This document shows, one piece after another, positions 2,656 to 58,530 of a DNA stretch of 64,000 nucleotides. This DNA comes from an uncultured Gammaproteobacteria bacterium (GTDB lineage: Bacteria; Patescibacteriota; Patescibacteriia; SG8-24): positions 136,766-200,765 of the forward strand of contig CAZBFO010000003.1 of assembly GCA_964491475.1 (NCBI GenBank), read 5' to 3'. The notes beneath the pieces were generated by a model. The model did not search any database. It was not told where the DNA came from and was given only the letters and a program-made list of their open reading frames with translations. Each line of letters starts with the position of its first letter. Position 1 is the first letter of the stretch. The position numbers and the translations under genes are program-made.

Positions 2656-2724
2656 TCCCAGGTCGCCACGATTGTGCCGAGCAAAAGAAAAACCCATCGA
2701 CATTTCGTCGATGGGTGTCGCGTT

Positions 2725-4804: not shown

Positions 4805-4850
4805 CCGGCGGATACTCCGTAAGTATCCGCCGGCCCTTTTGTGTTTTGTT
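4805..4850. terminator. bidirectional rho-independent terminator (perfect 12-bp stem ccggcggatact / agtatccgccgg, loop ccgta, T-rich tail)
   Basis: The perfect inverted repeat at 4805..4833 is followed by ccctttt gtgttttgtt. It lies between two minus-strand genes. Confidence 0.6.
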
Positions 4851-4867
4851 GGCTGTTTTATGAAGCG

Positions 4868-6287: not shown

Positions 6288-6415
6288 GGTGACATGTCAC
6301 TCCCGTGTGGAAGGTGCAGCTTTGGGAAGGTGCGGCTTGATTGAGGCGTCACTGTACGCCTGCCGGACGCGAATGTCAATGCGAACGGTTTTGCACAGCT
6401 GCGGCAATTTTTAAC

Positions 6416-6454
6416 CCCCGGTCCGCAAGCGCGGACCGGGGGCGTTTTGTGTTG
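6416..6454. terminator. rho-independent terminator hairpin (11-bp stem ccccggtccgc/gcggaccgggg, loop aagc) followed by gcgttttgtgttg
   Basis: Perfect inverted repeat directly downstream of the minus-strand gene 6480..7067. A/T-rich flanks on both sides make it possibly bidirectional. Confidence 0.55.
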
Positions 6455-6479
6455 CGCCTCGTAGAGGCAAGCTGGGGGT

Positions 6480-35325: not shown

Positions 35326-35529
35326 AGCTTTAACCAAAAGCGGCCCGAAGCTCATCGGGCCGCTTTTTCAGTTCTTGTATCGCTTCTCCCGGGCGTCCAC
35401 CCAGTACGGCATCGCAAAGAGGGAGGGAAAGGGTTGACGAACGGGAGAAAGCGTGGTAGGCATAGACGTTCGGGAAAGCCCATTTTTTGGCCTGGACACA
35501 GGTCGTTCACAACACAGAAAGGAAAAGCG

Positions 35530-36558: not shown

Positions 36559-36589
36559 CGGCGTCGCGGAATAGGCCGTGACGCACCTT

Positions 36590-36619
36590 GGCCGCGGCGA
36601 AAGTCGCGGCCGTTTTTTA
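36590..36619 (+). terminator. intrinsic terminator/attenuator hairpin between the vWA and kinase genes (ggccgcg-gcgaaagt-cgcggcc + gtttttta)
   Basis: Perfect 7-bp GC stem plus T6. The kinase gene has its own RBS 20 nt later. Confidence 0.5.
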
Positions 36620-36650
36620 TCCCGGCAGTCATGCCAAGAAGGAGAAAGTC

Positions 36651-38258
36651 ATGACGGTGATGTTGCCGGAGTTTCGGCTGAATGAAGAAGCGATGCACGA
36701 ATACTGCGAACGCCGCGGAGCAACGCTGCTTCGCGTGCTGCAGGAAGCGCGCGGGGGCACCGATGCCTGCAGCGGCGTGTTCCTGGCGATCGATGCCGAC
36801 GGCATCGTGAAGGTGTTCAAGGAGGAGCTGCCGCACAAGGATGCCGAGGTCGGCGCGACCGAAAAGGAATCCGAAGTGCACGCACGATTGGAAGGGCTTC
36901 CGTTTTTTCCAAGGCTCTACGGGGTTGAGGATTTCGGAGGCATTTCGGTGATGCGACAGTCGGTAGCATACGGACAAGAGCTGCAGGCCTGGCTCGATGC
37001 CGGAGTGCAGTTCGCACCGCAGGAGGTTCGTTCGATCATGGGACGGGTTGCCGGAGCGTTGGCTGTCATGCATGAACGGGGAGTCCTGCATCAGGACATT
37101 CGTCCGGCCAACATCAGGATCGATGGCGACGCGCTGTCGCTGATTGATGTCGGTGACGGTCGTATCTGCAAGGCAGGCAAGGTCATATCCGCGACTCCCA
37201 GCGATCCGGTCTACGCGCCGCCTGAAACGGCTTCGCAAGGGCAGGCGTCAGTCGTATCTGACGTGTTCCAGTTGGGGGCAGTCGGCCGGCAGTTAGCCGA
37301 CAGACGGGCCTTCCAGTACGCGCAACTGAACTCCTGGATCGACCGTATGGTCAATCCTGACCCGAACGGCCGTCCGAGCGCAGCGTCCGTTGCCAGCGGC
37401 TTGGGCGAAACGGGGCGATTGCGCATCCATGCCCCGCGCGGATCGCGCCGTACCTTGCCAGATGCGGGCATCGTGCTGTTCCCGGCAAGGATGGGAATCC
37501 CGCACCAAGGCCACGTCGATTTTATCGCACGGGTCATGGAGTTGGGATTTCCCGTCATCATCTCGCTGCAGCGGTCGTACACGATAACCGACCGCGACCC
37601 GTTGCCGAAGTGGCAGGTGATGAAGATGGTGGCGGCGTCGCTGGTCGAGAAGGGCTTCGTGCCGGACCAGGACTTCAGCTTCGTCTTCACGCCCCTGTTC
37701 GGGAGCGACGAGGCGCATCGGATGCACTTCGCCATGATGCCCGGAATGGACCGGGTGGTCGCGGTGGCGTCGGGCAACCCCGACGTGCAGGCGCTGTTTC
37801 CGGAGCTGCCGTTCATCGACCAGCGCGCGGTGTTCGGTCACGAAGGCGAGGACTATCTGGAACGGTCGTGGGGCGAAGGGCTCCGGGACGCGGTCCGTCT
37901 CGGCGTGCGCGGCACGTTTTCCGCGCTCGCGGCCTCCGGCGTCGAGAAGGTCCTCTCGTTTGCGGAGCTGCGCCGCGATTACGCCGCCGTGCAGGTCGAG
38001 TTCGTGCGAGGCTCGGTGACGGTCGTCGTCATCGACGGTGCCGGCAACGAGGCCGCTCGCGGGCGTGCGCTTCGTTATCTCGCGCCGCAACAGTCTGCCG
38101 TCCGCCACCTGGCGGCGACCGGCCTGCAGACGCGGGTCACCGACCTGTATGCGCGTGACACCGCCGTCGAGGTCGACGGCGTGCCTCGCGTCCTGCGGGA
38201 TGCCGGAACGACCGTCGACGCCGAAGGGAACGTCGAAATCAGCTTCGCGCTCGTTTGA
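36651..38258 (+). CDS. Hanks-type Ser/Thr protein kinase fused to a C-terminal cytidylyltransferase-like (HxGH nucleotidyltransferase) domain
   Basis: Kinase: beta3 Lys GIVKVFKEE, catalytic loop HQDIRPANIRI, DVG in place of DFG, APPE, and DVFQLG. C-terminal: GIVLFPARMGIPHQGHVDFIARVMELGFPVIISLQRSYTITDRDPLPKWQVMKMV matches the NMNAT/CTP-transferase HxGH ... ISxxR pattern. RBS ggagaaagtcATG. Confidence 0.65.
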   Translation: MTVMLPEFRLNEEAMHEYCERRGATLLRVLQEARGGTDACSGVFLAIDADGIVKVFKEELPHKDAEVGATEKESEVHARLEGLPFFPRLYGVEDFGGISVMRQSVAYGQELQAWLDAGVQFAPQEVRSIMGRVAGALAVMHERGVLHQDIRPANIRIDGDALSLIDVGDGRICKAGKVISATPSDPVYAPPETASQGQASVVSDVFQLGAVGRQLADRRAFQYAQLNSWIDRMVNPDPNGRPSAASVASGLGETGRLRIHAPRGSRRTLPDAGIVLFPARMGIPHQGHVDFIARVMELGFPVIISLQRSYTITDRDPLPKWQVMKMVAASLVEKGFVPDQDFSFVFTPLFGSDEAHRMHFAMMPGMDRVVAVASGNPDVQALFPELPFIDQRAVFGHEGEDYLERSWGEGLRDAVRLGVRGTFSALAASGVEKVLSFAELRRDYAAVQVEFVRGSVTVVVIDGAGNEAARGRALRYLAPQQSAVRHLAATGLQTRVTDLYARDTAVEVDGVPRVLRDAGTTVDAEGNVEISFALV

Positions 38259-42610: not shown

Positions 42611-43258
42611 TCAGCGCCGGGTCGGCTTTCGCCACTCGACGATTTCGCCGGCGCGAATCTCGACGTCGTCCGCTTTCCGAAGCGCGGCGACGTCTTTCGT
42701 TTTGAGGATGCTGACGTGCGGAACCGCGCAGAGGTGCTCCGGCACGAACCAGACCGGATCCTCGGAAGTCATCCAGCCGTGCTTGTCGAAGCGCGCCAGG
42801 TTCACGGGACGGGAGAAGGTCCGCATGGTCTTGCGCCCGTTCTGGAGGAAGTATTCGTGAAAGTAGGACATTACCAGCTCGCGGACGTTGGCGTAGACGG
42901 GTTCGCGGTAGCGCAGCACGCCGTGGTTGGTCTTGGAGAGGGCGCCCCAGCGTCCGCGCTCGCGGAACACGGTGATGACGTGGTCGTAATCGCCATCGGC
43001 GGCCTCGATGTCGACGATCAGCGGCGGATGGCCGATGAGCCGCAGCGCGGCGGCCGCGAACATCGCGCCTTCCATGCATTGCGCGTTGCGCTCGGCCAGC
43101 ACGCGGCGCGGCGACTTGCAGGTGTCGCCGTCCGGCTCGAAGTTGAACGGCATGGCGTTCAGGAAGTCCTGGATTTTGGCAGGCGCGGTCAGCCGTCGCA
43201 GCACTTTCATCTCCGCAGGCGTGAATCCGAAGTCGCGCATATGCGGGTAGTGTAGCAT
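42611..43258 (-). CDS. hypothetical protein, possibly a papain-like thiol enzyme fold (weak)
   Basis: The first ATG is at 43258 (MLHYPHM...). The ORF-track TTG at 43318 would overlap the divergent promoter. A conserved-looking AQCMEGAMFAAAA segment and downstream DYDHVITVF carry candidate Cys/His residues. Confidence 0.4.
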   Translation of the reverse strand: MLHYPHMRDFGFTPAEMKVLRRLTAPAKIQDFLNAMPFNFEPDGDTCKSPRRVLAERNAQCMEGAMFAAAALRLIGHPPLIVDIEAADGDYDHVITVFRERGRWGALSKTNHGVLRYREPVYANVRELVMSYFHEYFLQNGRKTMRTFSRPVNLARFDKHGWMTSEDPVWFVPEHLCAVPHVSILKTKDVAALRKADDVEIRAGEIVEWRKPTRR

Positions 43259-43282
43259 GCGCCTTGCATGCGGGGCACGGTA

Positions 43283-43311
43283 TTGACTTTGGGTTTTTTT
43301 GCTGCTAGCTT
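43283..43311 (+). promoter_or_regulatory. sigma70 promoter (-35 TTGACT, 17-nt spacer, -10 TAGCTT) for the gene at 43340
   Basis: ttgact at 43283..43288 and tagctt at 43306..43311, followed by a strong RBS ccaggaggaaacaATG. Confidence 0.5.
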
Positions 43312-43339
43312 TCGGCAACGTCCTTTCCAGGAGGAAACA

Positions 43340-44241
43340 ATGTCATTTCTGCAAACGTTGCGCGGCGTCGCGTCCATCGTCGGGGCCGGCGTCGACCTGT
43401 GGGTCGAACCGCCGGGAACCGACGGTCTGACCGTCACGTTAGACCGAGGCTGGGCCGAACGGCACGCGGCCGCGCGCAAAGAGTTCCGCCGGAACAATCC
43501 CGAGTTTGCCGAGCGGCAACGGAGGCAGACGGAGGACTTTCGCAAGAGAGGGCTCCTACGCGAGGTGCCGAAGAACCTGCACGAATACATCTGCGCCTGA
43601 AACATGCGGCGACGGGCGGGGAGTGGGAAGCGCGGCTTTCCATCGACGCCGACCAGGAGCGCGTCGACTGGACATACACGTCCGGCGAGCTGTTCAGCCG
43701 CAGGCACCTGGGTTCCGCCGCCATTGGCGTGTTTTTCATCACCCTGCCCGCGGCGGTGCTGCTGTCGCCGTACCTGTTCGTGCGGTCGCGCCTGTACGCC
43801 GCCGAGGAAGAGCGCCTGCAGATGTCTCGTCACGCCATCGCTCTTCTCAAAGCGCTCGGTGATCAGATCACCTTCGACGAGCAGCGCGAGCTGACCGTGG
43901 CGTTCAAGAACGAGTGGCAGTACGAATGGCTGATGAAGCAATCCATCGGTTTCGAACGCGCCAAGGAGTTCCTGAAGGCGCTGCCGCTCACCGAAGAGCG
44001 CGTTACTGCCGACGCCGCCAAGGACTACGACGACTGCGGCGCGACGAGCCTGCACTGGTTCGGCGAACAGGGCGACTGCCTGGCTAGCGGAAGCTTTTAC
44101 GGCGAACGCGACCACTACGTCGACGTGCTCGCCTCGCGTTTCGAAGGTAAAGAGGCCGACGTGCTGGCCGCCTGCTATGCCAAGCGCAGGCTGCGGATCG
44201 ACGGCAAAGACCAAGACGAACAGGAAGAAAAGAAGGCATAA
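43340..44241 (+). pseudogene. hypothetical gene split by a -1 frameshift near 43595 (ORF1 43340..43600, continuation in the -1 frame to 44241); alternatively two adjacent genes
   Basis: ORF1 ends ...KNLHEYICA at 43600. The overlapping -1 frame reads ...RIHLRLKHAATGGEWEARLSIDADQERVDW... with no ATG before 43822. The downstream part has a TM-like segment (AAIGVFFITLPAAVLLSPYLFV) and an acidic C-terminus. Confidence 0.4.
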
Positions 44242-44312
44242 AAAAGAACCGCACTGCATGTGCGGTCCGAGCGCCAAGCGGCGCTCTTTTTCTTTTTCTC
44301 CGGTCGCCGAGG

Positions 44313-45506
44313 TCAGTAGACCTTGGGCTTGCCGGCGTCGAAGCCGGCGGAACGTTTGCCGTTACCGGTCGGTTTGACGGGAACGCCGCGGAGCATGTCC
44401 CAGGGGATGTGCACGCCGATCTGCACCAGCGCGTTGAGGATGTAGGGGACGCGCGCCGGCGACTCCGTCGGCAGACGGTAGATCGCCGCCGCGTAGGACT
44501 TGAGCGCGTCCTCGCTCTGGGTGATGTCGTCCGAGACGGCGAGGTCGAGCAGGTTGACCAGCTCCTCGCGGTTCATGCAGCCGGTCGCGGAGACCAGCTC
44601 TGGCCGTTCGAAGATCGTCTGGAAGTGGTCCGCCTCGGCGGCCAGGCCGCGCGAGACCAGGACGCCCGGCCCGCAGAACACCTCGTTGTACCCGTCGATC
44701 ACCTTCTTTGCCGACGCGATGATCGGGTTGATGTCCGGCATGTTGTTGACCGGGGGAGGGGCGCCCATCTGCATCCCGCCGCCGGCCAGCTGCTGCACCA
44801 TCGTCTGCATCGCCTGCTGGAACGCGAGCGGGTTCGCCGACTGCGTCAGCCACGAGTCGTTCCAGGCCTTGGCCCGATCGTGGAAACCCGAGATGAGCGA
44901 CCAGAAGCTCTCCGCCTTGGAGAGAAATTCCCGCTTGTTCTTCTCGGTGTAGATGCGCGAGGTTGAGACCTTGGCCGCCGCGAACACGTCGCGGTAGGCC
45001 TTCTGCGTGAACAGGTCCTGGAGCTCGTAGTAGACCGGAGGGTACTGCTCCTTGTTCTTGGCGGTGCGGTACTCGATCGCCGACATGAGGTTCTCTTCGA
45101 GGTCGAAGAGGCCCATGCGGTAGGCGAGCAGGACGCTCACGGCGGCCGCGACGTCGTTCTCCTCCATCTTGGGGACGCCGCCGACCTGCAGGAGCTTGAT
45201 GAGCGATTTGCCCCTCGGGATGACCGGGAGCAGGCTTGCGGCTCCGGCGATCGGATCCATAGGGGCGGCCGTGCCCGCCAGGTTGGCGGGCGGCGTCGGC
45301 GCGGGTTTGAGCTCGATGATGAGCTTGCGCGCCTTGACGAGCGGGACGCCGAAGCCGGTCCAGTCGTTTTCGGTGAGCAGCGCCGCGTCCTCGAGCGTCT
45401 CGACCCCGGCGGCCTTGGCCTTGGCAGCCACGTCGGCCACCTTCGCCTTGGCCTCGTCCGTATCGCTGCCGAACAGGGCAGTCAGTTTCGCGAGCAACTC
45501 GTCCAT
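44313..45506 (-). CDS. hypothetical protein
   Basis: The ATG at 45506 (MDELLAKLTALFG...) has RBS gacggagacatctcATG. 397 aa. The longer ORF-track N-terminus (to 45626) is basic low-complexity. Confidence 0.5.
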   Translation of the reverse strand: MDELLAKLTALFGSDTDEAKAKVADVAAKAKAAGVETLEDAALLTENDWTGFGVPLVKARKLIIELKPAPTPPANLAGTAAPMDPIAGAASLLPVIPRGKSLIKLLQVGGVPKMEENDVAAAVSVLLAYRMGLFDLEENLMSAIEYRTAKNKEQYPPVYYELQDLFTQKAYRDVFAAAKVSTSRIYTEKNKREFLSKAESFWSLISGFHDRAKAWNDSWLTQSANPLAFQQAMQTMVQQLAGGGMQMGAPPPVNNMPDINPIIASAKKVIDGYNEVFCGPGVLVSRGLAAEADHFQTIFERPELVSATGCMNREELVNLLDLAVSDDITQSEDALKSYAAAIYRLPTESPARVPYILNALVQIGVHIPWDMLRGVPVKPTGNGKRSAGFDAGKPKVY

Positions 45507-45921
45507 GAGATGTCTCCGTCTTTCGTTGTGGTTGCGCGATCGTATTGGAAGGAACAGACGCTGCAGTACACCCTTTTCTGCCCCGATTGTCAAGCGTTTT
45601 CGACGAGCGCTGCGGCTTGTCCACAACGCGCCCCGCCGGCGCTGCTTGACGGCATTCCTGCGAGTGGTACAACTGCAGGTGTTAGTGTACTACATACACA
45701 AACTAACAAACCGGCACGGCGCGTCAAGGCCGCATGTGGACAGACGCATTGATGGCCGGCGAAGATTGACTTTCGACCGCTTTCTCCGTAGATTTCCGTT
45801 GCCTCTTTTTCTCCCTCGTCCGGTCCACCGCGCCGCGCGGCCGTCCGGGGGAGGCAAAGAACTCCGGTTCGGCCTCGAATTTCGCAACTTGAAAACCAGC
45901 AAAGCAAACCAAGGAGGAAAC

Positions 45922-47577
45922 ATGGCTGCTGCCATCGACATCAGCGCGGTACCGTTGCCGCCGCCGTGGAAGGAGGCGCTCGTCCTGCTCGTCGGCCGCT
46001 GCATCGGCGACCCGGGCTCGTACGCAGACGCAGCCTCTGCCGCGGGCGCGATCATCTCGGCGCTGTTCGGCAAGGGCGCACCCGCCTTCGGGCAGGTGGC
46101 CCGCACCGGCGAGGCCGAGCTGAAGACCGCCTGCGGTCAGGCCGGTCTCGGCGCCGACGCCCTGCCGGTTGCCAAGCTGCGGGAGCTCGCGGAGCTGCTG
46201 CCGCTGGTCCGGCCGGAAACGCCGATCTGCGACGAATGCGGGAACTACCCGCTCTCGTGCGTCGGCGGCAAGGTCATGACGCTGGCGGCCGGCGCGAGCT
46301 GCCCGTTCTGCGTCGGCGGCAAGCTGGCCGTCGTGCCCATGCGCCTGCGCAAGCTGGCCTGGACCGACGGCCGCCTGGTCGAGCCGCAGGTCGCGCACGA
46401 CCTTCGCGCCTTTCCCGGCACGAGCATCCCGCTCGACGACGCCGAGATCGTCGCCTGGGTCGGCGGCATCATCAGCAAGCCGCTGGAGATCGCCCTGCGC
46501 GACGCCGGCGTGCCTCTGTACGGCTGGCTGGCGCACATGCACCTGAACGAGAAGGCGCTCCCGTCCTACGTGGAAGTCGCCGACATCCTGCAGGACATGC
46601 GTGCCGCGGGACTCGATGGCGACGCGGCACTTCGCCGCAGCGTAGCCGAGGCGGGGGAGTTCCTTGCATCCAAGGAAGTCACCAACCTGCCCAGGCGGAC
46701 GCGGTTGCCGTTCATCAACGGCGACATCGACGCGCTGCCGCGCCTGACCGTCGCCGGACGCACCTACGTCCTCGAAGGCAAGGTCGGCAGCGGAGACGCG
46801 TCCGACGTCTATCGCGGCGCGTGGGACAGTCCCAACACCGAACGGGTCGTCATCAAGGTGAGCCGCGGCGGGAAGGACGGCCAGGACGGCAAGGACGAGG
46901 CCAAGCGCCTGGCGCGCGAGGTCTCCGTGCTCTCCACGCTGGCTAACAGCAAGGAGAACGGCGCGGCGTTCATGTCGCGCCTGCTCCCGGAAGTCGTCGC
47001 CGCGGGCTCGGTGCCCGGCAGCGACGGCGCGCTCAAGGCCGTCACGGTGTTCCGGTACAAGAACGGCTTCGACTGGACGCTGGCAGACGCCATCGCGGAG
47101 TATCCCGAAGGCGTCGAGCCACAGACCATGGTCTGGATGATGAACCGCTGCCTGCTGCTGCTTCGGTGGCTGCAGATGAACCAGACGGTGCACGGCGCGC
47201 TCTCACCGGAGCACGTCCTCATCCATCCCGGCTATCACGCGGCCACCTTCGTCGACTGGACCCATGCGGTCCGCGTCGGCGGACGGAAAGCAGCGCTCAT
47301 CGACGGTCAGCCGGCGACGTTCGACACGGACGTGGCCGCGCTGTGCCGCTGCATGATCGCCGTGCTCGGGGGCGACCCTGCGAGCGGCGACATGCCGGCC
47401 GCGGTGCCGCAGGTCATCGCCGAGTTCCTGCGTTTGCACGCACGTTGCGAAGCCGGTGACGGTTCACGGCGCTTCGTCGATGCCGAAGATCTCGAAAAGG
47501 AATTCGGCAAGGCCGCGACTGCGGCTTACGGCAAGCGCCGCTTTCATCCTTTCTTCTTGCCCCGGCCGAAACGGTGA
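45922..47577 (+). CDS. Zn-ribbon plus protein-kinase-like (probable pseudokinase) protein
   Basis: Strong RBS aaggaggaaacATG. N-terminal CDECGNYPLSC ... CPFCVGGK (CxxC-x25-CxxC). Kinase-like region: Gly-loop GKVGSGDASDVY, VVIKV Lys, and catalytic loop HGALSPEHVLI, where the catalytic Asp of HRD is Ala and the N is His. The DFG position reads FVDWTHA. Confidence 0.6.
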   Translation: MAAAIDISAVPLPPPWKEALVLLVGRCIGDPGSYADAASAAGAIISALFGKGAPAFGQVARTGEAELKTACGQAGLGADALPVAKLRELAELLPLVRPETPICDECGNYPLSCVGGKVMTLAAGASCPFCVGGKLAVVPMRLRKLAWTDGRLVEPQVAHDLRAFPGTSIPLDDAEIVAWVGGIISKPLEIALRDAGVPLYGWLAHMHLNEKALPSYVEVADILQDMRAAGLDGDAALRRSVAEAGEFLASKEVTNLPRRTRLPFINGDIDALPRLTVAGRTYVLEGKVGSGDASDVYRGAWDSPNTERVVIKVSRGGKDGQDGKDEAKRLAREVSVLSTLANSKENGAAFMSRLLPEVVAAGSVPGSDGALKAVTVFRYKNGFDWTLADAIAEYPEGVEPQTMVWMMNRCLLLLRWLQMNQTVHGALSPEHVLIHPGYHAATFVDWTHAVRVGGRKAALIDGQPATFDTDVAALCRCMIAVLGGDPASGDMPAAVPQVIAEFLRLHARCEAGDGSRRFVDAEDLEKEFGKAATAAYGKRRFHPFFLPRPKR

Positions 47578-47641
47578 ACCGTGAGGCCGTGGCGAAGGTT
47601 CGTTCCTTTGATAAGCAACCACACAGTTCCGGAGGTACGTC

Positions 47642-48646
47642 ATGGGCGGAGGATTGTATGACAGGGCGGCGCACGACGCCATCACCACCACGCGTGCGGA
47701 GCTGCCGCGCGAACAGGTGTTCCGTGCCAGCGAGATGAACCCGCTGATGGACCCGAAAGGCGTGAAGTACCGGGAGAGCTGCGACAGCGCGGCGCACCCC
47801 AACTCCAACGCCATCATCTTCGTGGTCGACGAGACCGGCTCGATGCAGCGCATTCCCGAGTACCTGGCCAAGACCGGCCTGCCGCCGCTCATGGGCATGC
47901 TGTACGACGCCAAGCTCATCGAGGACCCGCAGCTGATGCTGGCTGCCGTCGGCGACGCGATTCACGGCAACGGCTGCGAACGCTCGCCGCTGCAGGTCGG
48001 GCAGTTCGAGTCCGAAGCGGCGCTGATGGACAAGTGGCTCACGGCCATCCACCTGGAAGGCATCGGCGGCGGCAACGGAGGCGAGTCGTACGACCTGGCC
48101 CTGTACTTCGCAGCGCGCCACACCAAGATCGACTGCTACGAGAAGCGCGGCAAGAAGGGCTACCTCTTCATCTCCGGCGACGAGCCGCACCTGCGGCAGG
48201 TCGACAGGGAAGCGGTGCTCCGGCGAATCGGCGACGATCTCCCCGCGAACATCCCGATCGCCGACATCGTCGCCGAAGCCTCGGAGAAGTATCACTGCTT
48301 CTTCCTGGTTCCCGACAAGCGGCGCGCCGGGCAGTGCGAACGCTACTGGCGCGACGTGCTCGGCGACAACGTCGTCGTGCAGGACACCGAGGTCGACACG
48401 GCCGCCGTGACGGCGGTGCTCGTCGGACTGACCGAAGGCACCATCGCCTCGGTCAACGACGTCGAGGACGTGCTCGTCGGACTGGGCTGCGACGCGGCCC
48501 AGGCAAACCGCGTACGCGGGACCGTCGAGGCGTACGCGGCGGCCATCGGCCGCGGCGGGCAGTCGCGGCCGGTGCAGGGAACGGAGCAGCCGGACGCGTC
48601 CGATCCCAAGTCCAAAGGCAAGGGCAAGAAGCGCGGTCGGGTCTGA
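47642..48646 (+). CDS. von Willebrand factor A (vWA/MIDAS) domain protein, paralogous module to 35530..36558
   Basis: RBS ggaggtacgtcATG, 64 nt after the kinase-like gene with no terminator. MIDAS IIFVVDETGSMQ (DxTGS), GGGNGGESYDLAL, and FISGDEPH. A terminator follows at 48692..48722. Confidence 0.65.
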   Translation: MGGGLYDRAAHDAITTTRAELPREQVFRASEMNPLMDPKGVKYRESCDSAAHPNSNAIIFVVDETGSMQRIPEYLAKTGLPPLMGMLYDAKLIEDPQLMLAAVGDAIHGNGCERSPLQVGQFESEAALMDKWLTAIHLEGIGGGNGGESYDLALYFAARHTKIDCYEKRGKKGYLFISGDEPHLRQVDREAVLRRIGDDLPANIPIADIVAEASEKYHCFFLVPDKRRAGQCERYWRDVLGDNVVVQDTEVDTAAVTAVLVGLTEGTIASVNDVEDVLVGLGCDAAQANRVRGTVEAYAAAIGRGGQSRPVQGTEQPDASDPKSKGKGKKRGRV

Positions 48647-48691
48647 CGGTCGTTGACCGTTTGACCTGACGCTTCCGAAAGGTTACGGTAC

Positions 48692-48722
48692 GGGGTCCTG
48701 CGGTGCAGGGCCCCTTTTTCTT
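48692..48722 (+). terminator. rho-independent terminator (ggggtcctgc ggt gcagggcccc + tttttcttcc)
   Basis: 10-bp stem with one G.U pair and a T-run. It sits between the vWA and the PurA-like gene. Confidence 0.6.
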
Positions 48723-48749
48723 CCCGAAAAAGGAAAGGAGTTCTTTGTC

Positions 48750-50162
48750 ATGACAGGCAAGACCAAGAAGGCATTCATCGTCGTCGACCTCGGTTATGGC
48801 GACGCCGGCAAGGGCACCATGACCGACTGGCTGGCGCGCACCGAGCAGGTGCACGCGGTCATCCGCTTCAACGGCGGCTCGCAGGCCGCCCACAACGTGG
48901 TCACGCCGGACGGCCGGCACCACACCTTCTCGCAATTCGGTGCGGCCACTTTTGTTCCGGGCGTGCGCACGCACCTGTCGCAGTTCATGATCGTCAATCC
49001 GCTGGCGATGGTGCGCGAAGCGGCGGTGCTGGCAGGCAAGGGAGTTCCCGACGCCTTCGCCAGAACCACGATTCACGCGCGGGCACTGGTGACCACGCCG
49101 TTCCACGTCGCCGCCAACCGGCTCAAGGAAATCGGCCGGGGAGCGGCGAGGCACGGCAGCTGCGGCGGCGGCATCAGCGAGACTGCGGCGGACGCGCTGA
49201 CGCTCGGCGAATCGGTCGTCCGCGTGGGCGACCTGCGCGATCGCGACGCGCTGTCGCGCAAGCTCGCCTTCGTGCAACGCCACAAGCGCGGGCAGCTCGA
49301 CGCGCTCATCAGGACGTGCGCAGGCGAACCGCAGGCGCAGGCCGAGATTGCGGTGCTCGAAAGCGCCGACGTCATCGATGCTTACTGCCGGCAGATCGAG
49401 GCGTTCCTGGCACAGGCCGACATCGTGGCCGGAAACGGGCATTTGAAGGACCTCGCGGGCAGCGTCGTCTTCGAAGGCGCGCAGGGCGTGCTGCTCGACG
49501 AGTGGCACGGGTTCCATCCGTACACCACTTGGAGCACCTGCACGTTCGCCAACGCGCTTGAAATCAGCCGCGAGTGCGGAGACGCGCTCGGCGAAATCGT
49601 GCGCGTCGGCGTGACGCGAGGCTACGCCACGCGGCACGGCGCCGGCCCGTTCGTCACCGAAGACGCCGATCTGACCAAGAAGATTCCCGACCGCCACAAC
49701 GTCATGGACGACTGGCAGCAGGGATTCCGCGTCGGCTGGTTCGACGCGGTGGCGACGCGTTACGCGATCGCGGCTTGTCAGGGCATCGACACGTTGGCGG
49801 TGACCTGCATGGACCGCCTGCTCGAAGTCGGCCCCGAATGGCAGATGTGCGACGCTTACGCGCTCAAAGCGGCATCGCCCTCCGAGAAGCGCATGGTCAG
49901 AAAGTTGTTCGAGGAAGACAGCGCGGCGGAGCGCCATAGCCACATCAAGTCAGGCGCGGAGCGTGACCTTTCGCTTCAGGAGGAGCTGACCAAGCTGCTG
50001 CGGCTGGCGAGGCCGGAGTACGTCACGTTCCGCCCCACGGACAGGGCCGGCGTGCGGCGTGCGGTCAGCGACTATCTGGAGCTGATCGGCGACGGCCTCG
50101 GAATCATGCCGAGCTACGCCTCGTTCGGGCCTTCGGCCACGGACAAGAAGGTACTGAAGTAG
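48750..50162 (+). CDS. adenylosuccinate synthetase (PurA) family paralog, divergent
   Basis: RBS aaaggaaaggag. VVDLGYGDAGKGTMTDWL matches the PurA N-terminal GDEGKGK P-loop. IRFNGGSQAAHNVV matches the GGHNAGH region. FEGAQGVLLDEWHGFHPYTTWS matches FEGAQGxLLDIDHGTYPYVTSS. ATRHGAGPFVTE matches STRVGxGPFPTE. Where PurA has the GTTTGRxRRxGWLD loop, this protein reads WQQGFRVGWFD. Confidence 0.6.
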   Translation: MTGKTKKAFIVVDLGYGDAGKGTMTDWLARTEQVHAVIRFNGGSQAAHNVVTPDGRHHTFSQFGAATFVPGVRTHLSQFMIVNPLAMVREAAVLAGKGVPDAFARTTIHARALVTTPFHVAANRLKEIGRGAARHGSCGGGISETAADALTLGESVVRVGDLRDRDALSRKLAFVQRHKRGQLDALIRTCAGEPQAQAEIAVLESADVIDAYCRQIEAFLAQADIVAGNGHLKDLAGSVVFEGAQGVLLDEWHGFHPYTTWSTCTFANALEISRECGDALGEIVRVGVTRGYATRHGAGPFVTEDADLTKKIPDRHNVMDDWQQGFRVGWFDAVATRYAIAACQGIDTLAVTCMDRLLEVGPEWQMCDAYALKAASPSEKRMVRKLFEEDSAAERHSHIKSGAERDLSLQEELTKLLRLARPEYVTFRPTDRAGVRRAVSDYLELIGDGLGIMPSYASFGPSATDKKVLK

Positions 50163-50322
50163 ATGCGAGGGCGGCTTCGGCCGTCCTTTTTTCTTTGCAT
50201 GAAAACTGCTCGACGAAGATCGATCCGGAAAGCGTAAGCGGTTCAATTGAGGTCCTCGTCCTCCTCGCTCGGCACGGCATGAACCCCTTTACCCGGGCAC
50301 GTTCGGATGCTACCTTGCGCCC

Positions 50323-52116
50323 ATGAGCACGCTGCTTCAGGTCAACGACGTCACCAAGCGCTACGGCCCGCACGTGGTTCTCGACCACGCGCGCATTTCG
50401 TTTGCCGACGGGCAGAAAGTGGGCGTCATCGGACGCAACGGCGCCGGCAAATCCACGCTGGTTCGCATCATCGTGGGCGACGACGAGGCCGACGAAGGCG
50501 GCGTCACGCGGCACTCCTCCCTGCGATTGGGGTACCTTGAACAGCACGCGCCGTACCGCGAAGAAGAGACGGCCATGGCCTTCCTGACGCGTTACGCCGC
50601 AGTCGAGACTTGGCGGGCCGCCAAAGCCGCCAGCCGATTCGAGATGAAAGGCGAGATGCTCGAGCGTCGCATCTCCGAGCTGTCCGAAGGCTATCGCATG
50701 CGCGTGCGCCTGACCGGCATGCTGCTGCGTGAGCCGAACTTTTTGGTGCTCGACGAGCCCACCAACTATCTCGACCTCCGCACCCAGATGCTGCTCGAGG
50801 AATTCCTGCGCACCTTTCGCGGCGGGTTCCTGGTCGTCTCGCACGACCGCGAGTTCCTCAAGAACACCTGCCTCGAGACGCTGGAGGTGGATCGCGGCCG
50901 GCTGTTCCTGTATCCGCAGGGCATCGAGGCGTACTTGGCGTACAAGGAACAGCGCGCCGGGGAAATCGAACGCGAGAACAAAAAGATCGACGCGCGCCGC
51001 CGCCACCTGCAGGAGTTCGTGGACCGCTTCCGCTACAAGGCCAAAAAGGCCTCGCAGGCGCAGTCCAAGCTGAAGCAGATCGCGCGGCTCCGAAACATCG
51101 AGATCGAGCACCCGATGGCTACCGCGCGCATCGTCATTCCCGCGCCGAAGATCAAGAAGGGGATCGCCGTGCATTGCGAGAACCTTGCCATCGGCTATCC
51201 GGGCAAGACCGTGGCCGACGGCATCTCGATCGACTTGGAGCGCACGCGGCACATCGCCGTGCTCGGCGACAACGGGCAGGGAAAGACCACTTTTTTGCGC
51301 ACGCTTGCGGGTCTGCTCGAACCGCAGGGCGGTTCTTACCGCTGGGGCGCCGATTTGCAGGTGGCCTACTACGGTGAAAGCGTCTTTCGCTCGATGGAGC
51401 AGCACGACAAAGTCGGCCCGTACCTGATGCGCAAGGCCGCGTCGGGCGTGACCACCGAAGAAGTGCATCAGATGGCCGGCAACTTCCTGTTCAGCGACGA
51501 CGACATGGAGAAGACCGTCGCCACGCTTTCCGGCGGCGAGCGCAGCCGCCTGTGCCTGGCCGGACTGCTGCTGACCGGCAGCACCGTCTTCCTGCTCGAC
51601 GAGCCCACCAACCATCTCGACTTCGAGACGGTCGAAGCGCTGGGCATGGCGCTCGCGGACTATCCCGGCACCATCGTCTTCGTCAGCCACAACCGCACTT
51701 TCGTGAACCTGATCGCCACGGCCATCATCGAGGTGCAGGACGGCCGCGTACGCGCCTTCTCCGGCACGTACGAGGAGTACGTCTACATGATCGAGGAGCA
51801 CATTCACGAGACGCAGCCCGCCGCCGCGCCGAAAGCGGTCGCCGCCGCGACCAAACCCGTCGAACCGGAAAAGCCGACGGCCCGCGAGATCCACGAGGAG
51901 ATCAAGGAGCAGAAAAAGAAGATGCGCAAGATCGAGGAACGCGTGGCAGGTCACGAATCGGAACGTGAGACCATCTTGGCCAAGATGGCGATGAATCCCA
52001 CGGTCTTCTCGCCCTCGCTCAACCAGCGCCTGCACGAGATCGGCCAGCTCATCGCAAGGGACGAAGAGGAGTGGTTCAACGCGCGGCAGGCCATCGAGTG
52101 GTTGGAGAAGGAGTGA
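50323..52116 (+). CDS. ABC-F family ATPase (tandem NBDs; EttA/Uup/YheS-like translation factor)
   Basis: Two ABC cassettes (Walker A GRNGAGKST and GDNGQGKTT, signatures LSEGYRMR and LSGGERSR) joined by a charged linker. No TMD; C-terminal coiled coil. Confidence 0.8.
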   Translation: MSTLLQVNDVTKRYGPHVVLDHARISFADGQKVGVIGRNGAGKSTLVRIIVGDDEADEGGVTRHSSLRLGYLEQHAPYREEETAMAFLTRYAAVETWRAAKAASRFEMKGEMLERRISELSEGYRMRVRLTGMLLREPNFLVLDEPTNYLDLRTQMLLEEFLRTFRGGFLVVSHDREFLKNTCLETLEVDRGRLFLYPQGIEAYLAYKEQRAGEIERENKKIDARRRHLQEFVDRFRYKAKKASQAQSKLKQIARLRNIEIEHPMATARIVIPAPKIKKGIAVHCENLAIGYPGKTVADGISIDLERTRHIAVLGDNGQGKTTFLRTLAGLLEPQGGSYRWGADLQVAYYGESVFRSMEQHDKVGPYLMRKAASGVTTEEVHQMAGNFLFSDDDMEKTVATLSGGERSRLCLAGLLLTGSTVFLLDEPTNHLDFETVEALGMALADYPGTIVFVSHNRTFVNLIATAIIEVQDGRVRAFSGTYEEYVYMIEEHIHETQPAAAPKAVAAATKPVEPEKPTAREIHEEIKEQKKKMRKIEERVAGHESERETILAKMAMNPTVFSPSLNQRLHEIGQLIARDEEEWFNARQAIEWLEKE

Positions 52117-53335: not shown

Positions 53336-53448
53336 TGAGGCCCGCTCCCGGCGGGCCTTTTGCCATGCGCGGCGTTGACTTTTGGCAGTTCTTTTAGTAG
53401 TTTTGCGGCGTCCTCCCAATGGACGAACGTCGCGTAAAGGAGTTCGAA

Positions 53449-55218
53449 ATGCAGTTCATTTTTATCGCGCTTGTCGTGGCAGTTCTGGGCACGAGCCCCC
53501 TGCTCATAGCCCGGAAACGGAGCTATCTCGGCATGTATCCGGTTGTTGCTCTCGTGGGTACGCTGGTGCTTTCCGGCATCTTTTACCTCGCGCCGCCAGA
53601 CCTAGTGAACCCGTTTTGGGGCGGTGCGGCCATCGCGGCCCTGTCGCTCTCCGTCTTGACCGCCTTTCTCGTCATCGCGAGCGACCGGTCAGATGACGGC
53701 GGTGTGCGCAGGCGCAGGCTCACGGCCGGCGCAGGGCAACCGGCTGCCAGGCGTCACGGCCTGCTCATCCTGGTGCCCGTGCTGATCGTGCTCTGTCTCG
53801 TCGGCCGTTGGGTCGGCAGCTGGGCCATGTTCCGCGCGGGAGATTATGCCGCCATGCTCGGCCAGGTGCAGTCGCGGGTTTGGACGCAGGACGTCCAGCC
53901 CAAGGATCCGAACCACGTCCGCAAGGTGCCGGAGGCGTACGCGTCCTGGGTCGCCAACAAGCAGCTCGGCGCCGCGGACAGCGCCCTCGGCAGCCAGTTC
54001 GAACTGGATTCGGCGCACATGACCATCCAGATGGTCCGCGGCGAAATCTGGTTCATCGTGCCTCTCAAGTTCAAGGACTGGGGTACCTGGCGAGCCAGGC
54101 CGACGGCACCGGGATTCATCATGGTCAGCGCGGAGGATCCGAACCGCGATCCGGTGTCGGTGCTCGACCGGCAGTACGCCTACATGCCCAGCGCCTACTT
54201 CGGGAACTCCCTGTCGCGTCACTTGTGGACGCACGGCTTTTCCGACAAGGAGCTGTCCGACTTCACCTTCGAGGTGGACGAGGACAACAACGGCTGGTGG
54301 GTGGTGACCGTGACGCATCCGACCATCGGTTGGAGCGGCGATGAGGTGGAGGGCGTCGTCATCGTCAACCCGACGGACGGCAGCTTCCGCTTCTACGGCC
54401 TGAACGAGGTTCCCAAGTGGGTCGATCGCGTGATGCCGTCGGAGCTGCTGGGGTCGTACATGGCCTGGCACGGCAAGTATGCCGGCGGCTGGCTGAACAG
54501 CTGGTTCAGCGAGGTCAACCTGACCCAGCCGGAGGACATCACCTTCGTGCACGGGTCGGACAACGAACCGTACTTCGTGGCCGACATCACCTCGACCAAT
54601 GCCAAGGACGAGGCGCTGCTGGGGCTGATGTACGTCAGCGCCCGCAGCGGCAAGGCCACCTACTACAAGGCCAAGGGCGTCACTTCGCACGCGGCTTTGC
54701 AGGCGGTCGATGCCAAGGTGGCCTACCGCAAGTGGCAGGGCCAGACGCCGGTGCTGTACAACATGTACGGGACCATGGCTGACATCGTGCCGCTGATTGC
54801 CGCCAACTCCACCTATCAGGGCGTGGCCATCGTCAACATCGCCAAGCCGCAGGACGTGGCAGTCGGCGCCGACATGGCCGAAGCGCTGCGCGAGTACCAG
54901 AAGCTGCTCACGGCCGGGACCGATCCCGCGCCGGAGCTGGCCAAGAAGACGCGCAGCGTCAGCGGGACGGTGGTGCGCTTCTCGCGCGAGAGCGGCGGGC
55001 AGGGCACTTCGTATTACCTGCTGCTCAAGGACGGCAGGACCATCTTTACCGCAGGCGGCGAGCTTTCCCCCAAGCTGCCGCTGACGCGGGAAGGGGACAC
55101 CGTCACGCTCACCTACGTCGATTCCGGAGAAGCGGTCGAGCCGCTGCTGGCCTTCGACAACGCCTCGATCCAGCTCGAGGGGACTCCGGCGCGCCGGACG
55201 CAGACCGACAAGCGGTAA
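53449..55218 (+). CDS. membrane-anchored hypothetical protein (N-terminal TM helices, large extracytoplasmic domain)
   Basis: RBS aaaggagttcgaaATG. Three or four N-terminal TM helices are followed by about 480 aa of soluble Trp/Tyr-rich domain. Confidence 0.55.
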   Translation: MQFIFIALVVAVLGTSPLLIARKRSYLGMYPVVALVGTLVLSGIFYLAPPDLVNPFWGGAAIAALSLSVLTAFLVIASDRSDDGGVRRRRLTAGAGQPAARRHGLLILVPVLIVLCLVGRWVGSWAMFRAGDYAAMLGQVQSRVWTQDVQPKDPNHVRKVPEAYASWVANKQLGAADSALGSQFELDSAHMTIQMVRGEIWFIVPLKFKDWGTWRARPTAPGFIMVSAEDPNRDPVSVLDRQYAYMPSAYFGNSLSRHLWTHGFSDKELSDFTFEVDEDNNGWWVVTVTHPTIGWSGDEVEGVVIVNPTDGSFRFYGLNEVPKWVDRVMPSELLGSYMAWHGKYAGGWLNSWFSEVNLTQPEDITFVHGSDNEPYFVADITSTNAKDEALLGLMYVSARSGKATYYKAKGVTSHAALQAVDAKVAYRKWQGQTPVLYNMYGTMADIVPLIAANSTYQGVAIVNIAKPQDVAVGADMAEALREYQKLLTAGTDPAPELAKKTRSVSGTVVRFSRESGGQGTSYYLLLKDGRTIFTAGGELSPKLPLTREGDTVTLTYVDSGEAVEPLLAFDNASIQLEGTPARRTQTDKR

Positions 55219-57054: not shown

Positions 57055-57666
57055 TCATGGAGACGACGGCCGTTTCTTGCCGAAGCGGGCGAGCAGGCCG
57101 ACTCCGGAATGGGTGATGCCGCAGCTGATCGGATAGACCAGGTCGGGCCAGTGGCCGTGCCAGCGGAGCAGCACCGTGGCCAGGATGAAGACGTAGACGG
57201 AACCCCACAGCAGCCAGGCGGTCGGTTTTTCCGAATTCGGGTCGGCCAACACTCTGCGATAGGTGGGGATCATCGAGATGGCGATGGCCACTTGCATGAT
57301 CAGGTTGGCCAGCGTGGCGTTGCGCCAGTGCCACCATACGCCCGCCGTCGAGAGGCCAGCGATGAACAGGAAGACGTCCAGCCTGTCAAAACGGGCGGTG
57401 CTCTTTCTGGCGAGCGCCAGGCAGAACACCACCGTGCAGGCCGCCGCGCCCGCGAACGAGGCGAAGGCCTTGGGCGCGTCGCCGCTCATGATCAGGTAGC
57501 TGCTGGCGTTGAGCCAGGTCAGGATCACCCACAGGCCCCAGGTGGCCGGGTTCAGGGGCTGCTGGCCGTTCCAGATGGCGCGGCCGTAAATGACGTAGCC
57601 GGTCAGCTTGATGACCGCCGCGGTGATGCCGCAGAGCATGCCGGCCGTTTCCAAAACAGGGGACAT
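57055..57666 (-). CDS. integral membrane protein (hypothetical)
   Basis: The ATG at 57666 (MSPVLETAGML...) has RBS aaaggagg. Six predicted TM helices. The ORF-track upstream extension is not supported. Confidence 0.55.
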   Translation of the reverse strand: MSPVLETAGMLCGITAAVIKLTGYVIYGRAIWNGQQPLNPATWGLWVILTWLNASSYLIMSGDAPKAFASFAGAAACTVVFCLALARKSTARFDRLDVFLFIAGLSTAGVWWHWRNATLANLIMQVAIAISMIPTYRRVLADPNSEKPTAWLLWGSVYVFILATVLLRWHGHWPDLVYPISCGITHSGVGLLARFGKKRPSSP

Positions 57667-57822
57667 CGTGCCTCCTTTGCAGGCAGTCGTCCGCATCGAA
57701 TGAGCTGCAGTCGGTGTAGCGCATGGGGGAGATTCTGTCCATGCGCGGCCCGGCGGCGACCGTTGACCGCCGCAGTGAAACGTGGCAAGCTGCCTGCGGC
57801 TCATTCAAAAGGAGGACCAGGA

Positions 57823-58530
57823 ATGCAAGCCCATGAACGCATCATCGTCGCGTTGGACGTCGACAGCCTCGACGCCGCCAAACGGCACATCGAGGCGCTG
57901 GCGCCCCACGTCGGTTACTTCAAAGTCGGGCTCGAGCTGATCACTGCGGTCGGCGGTCCGGCGGCCGTTGCTGCCGTCAGGGCCGCGGGCGGCAGGGTGA
58001 TGTACGACGCCAAGTTCCACGACATTCCCGCCACCATGGCGGGCGCGGCACGCTCGGCGGTCAAGGCGCAGCAGGTGGATTTCTTCACCGTCCACGCCTC
58101 CGCCTCCAAGGCCGGCATGATCGCGGCCGTCGACGCCGTCGGCGGCGAGAAGGTCATCGGCGTCACCGTGCTGACCAGCCTGACCGACGGGCAGTGCATG
58201 GAAGTGTACGGCACCAAGGTCGACACCGCCGTGCTGCAGTTCGCATACTCCATGGTCGAGGCGGGCGTGCATTGGATCGTCTGCTCTCCCAAGGAACTTG
58301 GCGCGCTTGCCAAGGCGGGACTGCCTCTCAAGCCGATTACGCCCGGCGTCCGTCCGGTTTGGGCCGATGCCAACGATCAGAAGCGGGTGATGACGCCGGC
58401 GGAGGCCGTGAAGGGCGGCGCGCAGATGCTGGTCATCGGCCGTCCCATTCTCAAGCCGCCCTCCTCGCTCGGTTCGCCGGTCGAGGCGGCCAAACGGATC
58501 GCGGACGAGATCGCGGGAGCGCTGCAATGA
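57823..58530 (+). CDS. pyrF: orotidine 5-prime-phosphate decarboxylase
   Basis: RBS aaaggagga. IIVALDV, the catalytic region YDAKFHDIPATM (DxKxxDIPxT), and a C-terminal GRPI loop. Confidence 0.9.
   Translation: MQAHERIIVALDVDSLDAAKRHIEALAPHVGYFKVGLELITAVGGPAAVAAVRAAGGRVMYDAKFHDIPATMAGAARSAVKAQQVDFFTVHASASKAGMIAAVDAVGGEKVIGVTVLTSLTDGQCMEVYGTKVDTAVLQFAYSMVEAGVHWIVCSPKELGALAKAGLPLKPITPGVRPVWADANDQKRVMTPAEAVKGGAQMLVIGRPILKPPSSLGSPVEAAKRIADEIAGALQ

Follow-up and report, generated by a model that had tools for sequence, protein, structure and literature searches.

A distinct clade of PurA-like proteins with a predicted remodelled acceptor site, encoded beside a vWA protein and usually a pseudokinase in bacteria and phages

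The window analysed here is a stretch of 64,000 nucleotides from an uncultured Gammaproteobacteria bacterium (GTDB lineage Bacteria; Patescibacteriota; Patescibacteriia; SG8-24), taken from contig CAZBFO010000003.1 of the GenBank assembly GCA_964491475.1 (positions 136,766 to 200,765 of the forward strand); positions within it are counted from its first letter. Its open reading frame (ORF) 48750-50162 (+) encodes a PurA-like protein of 470 amino acids, which on sequence grounds is an intact member of a distinct, widespread clade within the adenylosuccinate-synthetase superfamily (PF00709). The protein is the enzymatic member of a conserved module, in which it is accompanied by a vWA protein with a metal ion-dependent adhesion site (MIDAS) and usually by a pseudokinase. 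That the clade is distinct, being neither PurA nor PurZ, and that it is part of this module we consider highly probable.

The ORF begins with ATG behind a Shine-Dalgarno-like GGAAAGGAG, its GC contents at the three codon positions (0.66/0.47/0.86) resemble those of the genuine genes of this window of about 64% GC, and the same gene has also been called in public assemblies. Pfam family PF00709 matches the protein over residues 10-375 with E = 5.4e-60 (203.7 bits against a cut-off of 27), yet the protein misses the cut-offs of all five NCBIfam PurA equivalogs, which are NF002223 (168 bits against 402), TIGR00184 (138 against 395.55), NF010357 (102.9 against 700), NF010355 (98.4 against 445) and NF003295 (65.7 against 368). 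This combination bears out a preliminary description of the DNA, made from its letters and ORF translations, in which the protein was called a divergent PurA paralog; the four motifs quoted there (GDAGKGTMTD, GGSQAAHN, FEGAQGVLLD and WQQGFRVGWFD) are all found in the translation. The best solved structures for the protein are entries of Escherichia coli PurA (E about 1e-33), to which it is 27% identical by tblastn, and databases annotate it as adenylosuccinate synthase. PurA (EC 6.3.4.4; structures 1ADE and 1CG0; models TIGR00184 and NF002223) and the PurA-like proteins share PF00709, the P-loop GDxGKG, a similar length and an alignable C-terminal GTP-binding segment. They differ in that PurA stands alone, whereas the PurA-like gene sits in an operon with the vWA and pseudokinase genes, in that the scores of the window protein are less than half of the equivalog cut-offs, and in a substrate loop in which the family reads x-W-Q-x-x-F where PurA has T300-T301-G-R303-R304-R305.

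Active-site residues were compared in an alignment of E. coli PurA with the window protein and 119 homologues, that is, with 120 family members. Invariant throughout (E. coli numbering) are G12, D13, G15, K16, G17, H41, Q224, D333, S414 and G416, the counterparts in the window protein being D18 for D13, K21 for K16, H48 for H41, Q245 for Q224, D355 for D333 and S458/G460 for S414/G416. We take these residues, from what is seen in the E. coli enzyme, to form the site for guanosine triphosphate (GTP) and to activate the 6-oxo group of inosine monophosphate (IMP). As judged from the alignment, the GTP-binding elements (P-loop, D333, S414/G416) and the residues of phosphotransfer and lactam activation (D13, K16, H41, Q224) are retained. 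The region around Lys16 had been described as different from that of PurA. This is correct for the residues that follow it (K18, for example, is replaced by T), not for Lys16 itself, which is conserved as K21.

The picture at the L-aspartate loop is another one. For T300-T301-G302-R303-R304-R305 of E. coli PurA the window protein reads D-W-Q-Q-G-F, with W322-Q323 in place of T301-G302, Q324 in place of R303, G325 in place of R304 and F326 in place of R305; R306 is kept as R327. Over the family the positions T300 to R306 read x-W-Q-(R/Q/G)-x-F-R, of which W, Q, F and the final R are invariant: Thr301 and Arg305 are replaced in 119-120 of the 120 members and Thr300 and Arg304 are not conserved, while R303 is retained in 60 members and Arg306 in all. 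The ligands of the IMP 5'-phosphate have changed as well. N38 is Q in 120/120 members (Q45 in the window protein), T129 is C in 118/120 (C138), and R143, the ligand that the partner subunit supplies, has become D, E or S (E154); only T239 is kept. Two further substitutions are fixed in the clade, namely S240 to W (120/120; W261) and V273 to H (119/120; H296), and there is an insertion of about 40 residues ahead of the C-terminal segment relative to E. coli PurA. Across the 120 members Q45, C138, W261, H296, W322, Q323, F326 and R327 are invariant or nearly so. Since the residues that replace those of PurA are invariant within the clade, they are fixed substitutions rather than the outcome of random drift or decay. 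The alignment thus indicates that the L-aspartate loop and three ligands of the IMP 5'-phosphate have been swapped for clade-invariant residues, and the absence of the canonical GTTTGRxRR loop, as stated in the preliminary description, holds in that a proper alignment recovers neither the aspartate loop nor the 5'-phosphate ligands.

These substitutions bear directly on the question of whether the protein could be a genuine adenylosuccinate synthetase isozyme that converts IMP, L-aspartate and GTP by means of a remodelled loop, for stress or back-up in cells and as an auxiliary metabolic gene in phages, which would profit from more adenylate, e.g., from adenosine tri- or monophosphate (ATP/AMP) for the resynthesis of nicotinamide adenine dinucleotide (NAD). 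In its favour, the GTP site and every residue of phosphotransfer are preserved, Arg306 does not vary, half of the family has Arg303, the database annotation says the same, and adenylate builds NAD, which would fit the NAD-salvage neighbours described below. We nevertheless consider such an isozyme quite improbable. Thr301 and Arg305 are replaced almost without exception, Thr300 and Arg304 are unconserved, N38, T129 and R143 have changed, and the scores lie well under every equivalog cut-off. At none of the loci examined is there a purB beside the PurA-like gene, canonical purA coexists with it in the same genomes, and the near-obligate vWA partner has no part in the adenylosuccinate reaction.

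The coexisting canonical purA genes were found within 10 kb of the PurA-like gene in three related loci, two from Micromonospora genomes and one from an Anaerolineae metagenome-assembled genome (MAG) (L026, 19699-21135 (-); L007, 6134-7399 (+); L059, 20380-21195 (-)). They encode proteins that are 45-47% identical to E. coli PurA and that carry the motifs GDEGKG and TTGR; their proximity to the PurA-like gene could be due to chance or be the remnant of an old tandem duplication. In a neighbour-joining tree, which is a distance tree, the canonical copies fall together with E. coli PurA, whereas the cellular and viral members of the family all belong to a single clade apart from them. Canonical copies are 46-48% identical to one another and family members 36-68%, as against 19-32% between the two groups. 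The window protein, for which grouping with housekeeping PurA had been put forward as the outcome that would count against its being a divergent paralog, groups apart from it in this clade.

The order of the module genes was followed through 79 genome loci with an intact PurA-like ORF. Four of these have the gene at the end of a contig, and of the other 75 all but L022 and L070 (73 loci) have a vWA homologue immediately upstream on the same strand. A pseudokinase homologue accompanies the vWA gene in about 65 genome loci. Of the 80 viral loci fetched, 78 carry the vWA homologue and about 59 the pseudokinase. That the gene sits in a vWA-kinase context had been noticed before; the context is real, it is immediately adjacent (45922-48646) and it represents a partnership conserved across phyla and phages.

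The vWA partner (47642-48646 (+), 334 amino acids) gave no match above threshold against Pfam, the vWA models matching weakly, and when the Protein Data Bank was searched by sequence and with a profile of the vWA family there was no match. It is for this reason that the vWA fold is shown by structure prediction and Foldseek. The AlphaFold2 (AF2) model has a mean predicted local distance difference test score (pLDDT) of 90, and its top Foldseek matches (E about 1e-6) are integrin beta I-domains, the vWA domain of SpaC, the A3 domain of vWF and the vWA domain of Ku80. A MIDAS-like motif, D63-E-T-G-S67 (D63-x-T-G-S67 in the family), and the pair D180-E181 are invariant in the family, which comprises 2123 representatives at 50% clustering and whose window member matches phrog_2971 with E = 9e-47. 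By its model, then, the partner has a vWA fold with a MIDAS motif. Of 232 full-length homologues 220 begin with MG (47642-47665 in the window), the motif being M-G-[YGS]-[GS]-x-[YW]-[SD]; this conserved N-terminus may be a modification or docking site. Many family members also end in -RL behind a disordered tail, which the window copy does not.

The pseudokinase partner (45922-47577 (+), 551 amino acids) has the same start in Logan assemblies and a ribosome-binding site AAGGAGG. It consists of a helical N-terminal region, a CxxC...CxxC zinc ribbon and a C-terminal protein-kinase fold, as seen in an AF2 model with pLDDT 87, the C-terminal half of which finds PknB, TNIK and CK1 by Foldseek (E about 1e-8); it also matches phrog_3043, labelled 'kinase', with E = 7e-11. 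In the family the beta3 Lys is kept, HRD is changed to HGA in all aligned members, so that the catalytic Asp is absent, and the DFG position holds D, G or N. With HGA for HRD and a variable DFG the partner is best called a pseudokinase. Most members have an N-terminal J-domain with the motif YRxLAxxxHPD and a match to PF00226, for example the pseudokinase of locus L011 with 32.1 bits, which is above the cut-off. The window copy has RPET where HPD is expected and thus lacks the J-domain tripeptide; the pseudokinase is fused to a J-domain in most lineages and to a zinc ribbon in that of the window. This subgroup comprises 29 relatives from MAGs of Binatia, Eisenbacteria and Patescibacteria, which also hold the closest homologues of the window's partner proteins.

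The module is spread over many bacterial phyla and is also found in phages, both lytic and jumbo. Databases contain more than 7000 relatives of the PurA-like protein, with full-length matches at 45-76% identity, and a scan of one genome per species found the family in at least 587 species. These belong to the Actinomycetota (Micromonospora, Actinomadura, Streptosporangium, Streptomyces, Frankia), Chloroflexota, Myxococcota, Saccharibacteria, Uhrbacteria, Sungbacteria, Abditibacteriota, Armatimonadota, Planctomycetota, Acidobacteriota and Pseudomonadota, the nearest genome match in the scan being a Myxococcota MAG (59%). PurA homologues are known from deazapurine antibiotic clusters, and many family members come from Actinomycetota, which are rich in secondary metabolism. 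One could therefore think of a tailoring enzyme of a nucleoside natural-product pathway, comparable with the PurA homologue of the toyocamycin cluster. This is very improbable, however. There is no biosynthetic cluster around the gene in the window or in its relatives, the module is present in genome-reduced bacteria of the candidate phyla radiation (CPR) and in lytic phages, and the flanks vary by lineage while the trio is constant. When 68 genes flanking 27 non-actinobacterial loci were assigned to Pfam families, no fourth partner recurred, so the flanks are lineage-specific. The PADLOC models had no match for the PurA-like or vWA proteins and only generic kinase matches for the kinase-fold proteins, from which it follows that the module is not a catalogued defence system.

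In viruses, a scan with clade-specific motifs found the PurA-like gene on 220 IMG/VR contigs, many of them 100-500 kb long, and tblastn found it in 239 GenBank phage records, 201 of which are Mycobacterium phages of cluster C1 (Bixzunavirus). The cluster C1 homologues are 40% identical to the window protein over 99% of its length and are annotated "PurA-like adenylosuccinate synthetase"; the best PHROG for the window protein is phrog_1211 (E = 5e-74). They include gp264 of phage Mangeria, which has the full clade signature, and proteins of phages Catera and ScottMcG, and they share with the clade the motifs GGSQAGHN, GSCG, TTWST, TRHG and WQGKFR. Their sequences thus place the window enzyme in the same clade as these mycobacteriophage proteins. 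The order of the genes is also the same, from gp261, a J-domain pseudokinase (annotated "serine/threonine kinase") with HPD, HGA and DW motifs, through gp262, which is annotated as hypothetical and is the vWA partner (it starts with MGSGAW, contains LDVTGS and ends in ...DRL), to the PurA-like gene. The phage module differs in an extra gene for a protein of 90 amino acids, gp263, between the vWA and PurA-like genes and in the intact HPD of its pseudokinase, where the window copy has a zinc-ribbon N-terminal region with RPET. The flanks of the viral loci are made up of typical phage genes, such as those for intein-containing RtcB, DNA polymerase III alpha, RecA, a phage metallopeptidase and HNH endonucleases. 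For example, on the jumbo-phage contig L091 an RtcB RNA ligase with an intein (Hint and LAGLIDADG; 2293-5001 (+)) lies directly upstream of the vWA/PurA-like pair.

PurZ and PurZ0 (6FM1, 7ODX, 7VF6), with which the protein had been compared in the preliminary description, are also phage-borne enzymes of the PurA superfamily with changed substrate specificity. As an analogy this comparison stands, but PurZ identity was rejected. The PurZ model NF038379 gives only 36.1 bits, far below its cut-off of 300, and PurZ structures align with the N-terminal 60 residues alone (E about 3e-3). The catalytic Asp, which is Ser in all phage PurZ and PurZ0 (PMC12884076), is present in the window protein as Asp18 (Asp13 of E. 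coli) and is invariant in the family. PurZ needs aspartate as co-substrate, whereas it is the aspartate loop that the PurA-like family has lost, and neither in the window nor in Mangeria does the gene have datZ, mazZ or dpoZ-like neighbours. It is scarcely credible, then, that the protein is a PurZ-type enzyme making precursors of 2-aminoadenine (Z), as the label of phrog_1211 and the RefSeq name of the mycobacteriophage and Rhizobium phage homologues would have it. This name, '2-aminooxy adenylosuccinate synthetase', which RefSeq and PHROGs give to phage homologues, looks like a propagated annotation error, because the proteins keep the Asp that is absent from PurZ and because no Z-pathway genes are near them in the phages.

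Rhizobium and Vibrio phages have a shorter and more divergent vWA/PurA-like pair, and a Met-rich protein takes the place of the pseudokinase. Since the pair is kept there without the pseudokinase, it is the core of the module. The protein in the pseudokinase's place (6217-6930 in the locus of Vibrio phage phiKT1024 and 5777-6568 in that of Rhizobium phage RHph_TM30) has an N-terminal 'RKVDGVVWDxMxG' motif and a very Met/Gly-rich C-terminus and has no PHROG match. The PurA-like copies of these phages are truncated at the C-terminus (378-416 amino acids) and still keep the P-loop, as would be compatible with the protein being not a ligase but a regulatory or chaperone-type GTPase, a nucleotide-gated switch that with the vWA adaptor and the J-domain pseudokinase remodels or sequesters a target protein, by analogy with MoxR-vWA pairs or SIMIBI GTPases. 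The partners do consist of protein-binding and scaffold domains (MIDAS-vWA, pseudokinase, J-domain), and the aromatic residues that fill the acceptor pocket could simply close it. But D13, H41 and Q224, which according to structural work on the E. coli enzyme serve substrate chemistry in PurA rather than GTP hydrolysis, are invariant in the 120 members, and this argues for retained chemistry on a bound substrate. We therefore regard such a GTPase as unlikely.

The neighbourhood of the module in many relatives points to NAD and adenosine diphosphate ribose (ADP-ribose). In 52 genome loci the trio is preceded on the same strand by an NrtR-type gene, whose product combines a NUDIX domain (with an intact Nudix box) and NrtR_WHD. 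Most of these loci are from Actinomycetota; one is from a Terriglobales MAG, and in a Saccharibacteria MAG the gene has a divergent orientation. About 36 nt upstream of nrtR there are paired palindromes of the type TTCTCA-N3-TGAGAA (GTTCTCA-N3-TGAGAAC) in 47 of 53 loci, which are probably the NrtR operator; they are found among the loci L012-L082, e.g., at about 7215-7260 in L053. NrtR regulators sense ADP-ribose (PMC2330246), and the module genes may be the 'nrtX-nrtY' of the NrtR regulons (Rodionov 2008, PMC2330246). NrtR-like regulators were also found in a 2022 survey (Aravind laboratory, Viruses) together with vWA "peptide-binding chaperones" in ADP-ribose-processing systems, in which no PurA-like enzyme is described (PMC9503650).

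Genes of NAD synthesis and salvage are likewise found near the module. In Candidatus Accumulibacter, pncB, nadE, nadM (cytidylyltransferase plus NUDIX), pseudokinase, vWA and PurA-like genes follow one another on one strand, and in a Sungbacteria MAG nadE is directly downstream of the PurA-like gene. In eight distinct viral loci the module has a NAMPT gene as its neighbour, and NAMPT is the commonest Pfam family among 131 viral flanking genes, which also include NADAR and a winged helix-turn-helix domain associated with phosphoribosyltransferases (PRTases). In three jumbo-phage loci (L104, L109, L112) the order of the genes is NrtR, NAMPT, vWA, PurA-like, pseudokinase and a gene for a protein with a cytidylyltransferase-like (NMNAT-type) domain, and in the viral locus L160 it is NadM, NAMPT, ..., vWA and PurA-like. 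In Vibrio phage phiKT1024 the third gene upstream of the vWA gene is a NADAR gene, and in Rhizobium phage TM30 genes for a PRTase-like protein and a cytidylyltransferase are located about 3-4 kb upstream of the pair. On balance we find it probable that the module is tied to NAD/ADP-ribose turnover. The presence of the module beside NAMPT/NMNAT genes in lytic phages makes a role in the contest over NAD+ plausible.

Taking active site, partners and context together, our preferred reading is that of a PurA-like ligase with a non-aspartate acceptor, which acts in a vWA/pseudokinase module and serves NAD/ADP-ribose turnover; the case for it is evenly poised. Its chemical part, i.e., retained ligase chemistry with an acceptor other than aspartate, is evenly poised at best. 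The enzyme would use GTP to phosphorylate an oxygen of a nucleotide-type substrate. The most parsimonious candidate, being the smallest departure from PurA, would be a 6-oxopurine nucleotide with an altered 5' substituent. The phosphate would then be displaced by a nucleophile other than L-aspartate, for which ammonia, nicotinamide or a peptide amine come into question; the candidate for the last is the conserved N-terminal glycine of the vWA partner. With W261, H296, W322, Q323 and F326 the remodelled pocket would be both aromatic and polar and would suit an amine that is small or aromatic (ammonia, nicotinamide) or that belongs to a peptide. The vWA protein would be a metal-dependent, peptide-binding adaptor that probably binds a peptide or an acidic ligand, and the pseudokinase would probably scaffold the complex and, where a J-domain is present, recruit Hsp70. 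The genomic context would couple expression and function to the ADP-ribose/NAD+ status. The module could thereby serve the restoration of the NAD+/ADP-ribose pool in cells and counter-defence or host takeover in phages, where pool restoration, repair of a damaged nucleotide and interference with a nucleotide signal are conceivable.

A bolder version of this reading, which we consider decidedly unlikely, is that the module is a hitherto unrecognised, GTP-driven route for rebuilding or repairing cleaved NAD+, which bacteria would have in common with the phages that combat NAD-depleting immunity. The PurA-like enzyme would transfer phosphate to an oxygen of a nucleotide that derives from ADP-ribose or contains inosine, this phosphate would be displaced by nicotinamide or ammonia bound within the aromatic pocket, and the vWA protein and the J-domain pseudokinase would deliver or regulate the enzyme. 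If in a variant of it the acceptor were the N-terminal glycine of the vWA protein, the result would be a new protein-nucleotide modification.

Several points weigh against the preferred reading of a non-aspartate ligase in NAD/ADP-ribose turnover. There is no NrtR, pncB, nadE, nadM or NAMPT homologue in the 64-kb window, so that the link to NAD reaches this locus by homology of context only. Of the non-actinobacterial loci only a minority have NAD genes at their flanks, just one (nadE) of the 68 genes flanking the 27 such loci being NAD-related, and the NrtR association, which is largely that of one phylum, the Actinomycetota, could in part be inherited synteny. Arg303 is found in half of the family and Arg306 in all members, and with their persistence carboxylate binding, even that of aspartate in a new pose, is still conceivable. 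The tree in which the clade stands apart carries no support values. It should also be noted that no simple metabolic scheme gives the vWA and pseudokinase partners a role. Finally, the literature on family members consists of genome announcements and one phylogeny, in which about 330 non-PurZ phage homologues serve as outgroup, and contains no biochemical data; literature on PurA-like proteins or paralogues, on vWA plus kinase, on defence and on jumbo-phage contexts yielded no functional study.

Among known systems the TerY-P triad, which is composed of a vWA protein, a kinase and a phosphatase, resembles the module in the pairing of a vWA protein with a kinase-fold protein. The NrtR/WYL-regulated ADP-ribosylglycohydrolase systems resemble it in combining an ADP-ribose-sensing Nudix-HTH regulator with a vWA protein and an enzyme (PMC9503650). 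These systems differ from the module in that their enzyme is an ADP-ribosylglycohydrolase or a PP2C phosphatase and the kinase active, whereas here the enzyme is PurA-like and the kinase dead. Two NAD+ reconstitution pathways of phages, NARP1 (Adps plus Namat) and NARP2 (Nampt plus Nmnat), were reportedly described by Osterman et al. in 2024. Like the module they are gene sets of phages and bacteria with or beside NAMPT/NMNAT, and both plausibly answer the cleavage of NAD+ to ADP-ribose and nicotinamide; in the jumbo phages the trio even lies between NAMPT and the NMNAT-like gene, behind the NrtR gene. The resemblance is one of gene context, however, as none of the three module proteins is homologous to Adps or Namat.

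What is already known of the clade is the superfamily and the loose label "PurA-like". In the searchable literature there is no report of the remodelling of its active site, of the near-obligate vWA/pseudokinase partnership, of its breadth in bacteria and phages or of the recurrent NAD/ADP-ribose context. To our knowledge PurZ, which revealed a new DNA base, is the only known functional offshoot of PurA. The clade described here would be a second and much larger one with a swapped acceptor site, comprising thousands of proteins from ten or more bacterial phyla, genome-reduced CPR bacteria among them, and from hundreds of phages; in databases these proteins are mislabelled as adenylosuccinate synthase or as a PurZ-type enzyme. 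This affects metabolic reconstructions in which a PurA-like gene is counted as purA, e.g., in CPR genomes, and it bears on NAD+ depletion and reconstitution in the conflict between phages and bacteria. About 200 cultured and genetically tractable phages of Mycobacterium smegmatis carry the module, so that the question is directly testable.

In the window the module has putative signals of its own. A sigma-70-like promoter match, TTGACT-17-TAGATT (45766-45794 (+)), is located upstream of the module and is the sole one in 45400-50500, where 0.3 would be expected by chance. Also upstream of the pseudokinase gene is an AT-rich block, TGTTAGT-N15-ACTAACA (45680-45708 (+)), with a perfect inverted repeat of 7 nt. 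The related locus L083 has the block TGTTAGTGT..ATACACAAACTA in near-identical form, although the intergenic region has otherwise diverged; the block may be an operator or a promoter element. The vWA and PurA-like genes are separated by a spacer of 103 nt, unlike those of most other loci, in which they overlap by 4 bp. When 113 nt are taken for the spacer, the fold has an energy of -47.6 kcal/mol (z = -3.2); the spacer contains a strong predicted terminator-like hairpin (48692-48714 (+)) with a 10-bp stem (8 GC pairs) and a 3-nt loop, followed by the T-run TTTTTCTT. In view of the overlap in most other loci, the spacer may with its hairpin be a lineage-specific attenuator. A second terminator-like hairpin (50167-50188 (+); 9-bp stem, 4-nt loop, TTTTCTTT), 5 nt past the stop codon of the PurA-like gene, is probably the end of the transcription unit.

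The neighbours of the module in the window encode a P-type ATPase, a glutathione S-transferase (GST), ABC transporters, an ABC-F protein, gpsA, a protein of the inositol-monophosphatase family and pyrF. These are ordinary chromosomal genes, and the locus is thus not a prophage. A second vWA-like/kinase pair is encoded 8 kb upstream of the module (35434-38258 (+)). Its 374-amino-acid protein (35434-36558) has a MIDAS-like 'MDNSGS' and no Pfam match, and in a profile comparison with the partner vWA family it gave a non-significant E = 0.06, for which reason the pair is treated as separate and unrelated. Its 556-amino-acid protein has a genuine Pkinase domain (E = 2e-16) and matches the PADLOC models for the PD-T4-6 and MkoA kinases. 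The 473-amino-acid ORF 57109-58530 (+) shows an orotidine monophosphate (OMP) decarboxylase domain in residues 244-463 only, the N-terminal 240 residues being without a Pfam match, and is either an unusual fusion or has an over-extended start codon. There is likewise no Pfam or PADLOC match for the 599-amino-acid ORF 53419-55218 (+) and for three minus-strand ORFs of 235, 356 and 437 amino acids (42611-45626), and homologues of the latter three also flank the module in the related locus L083.

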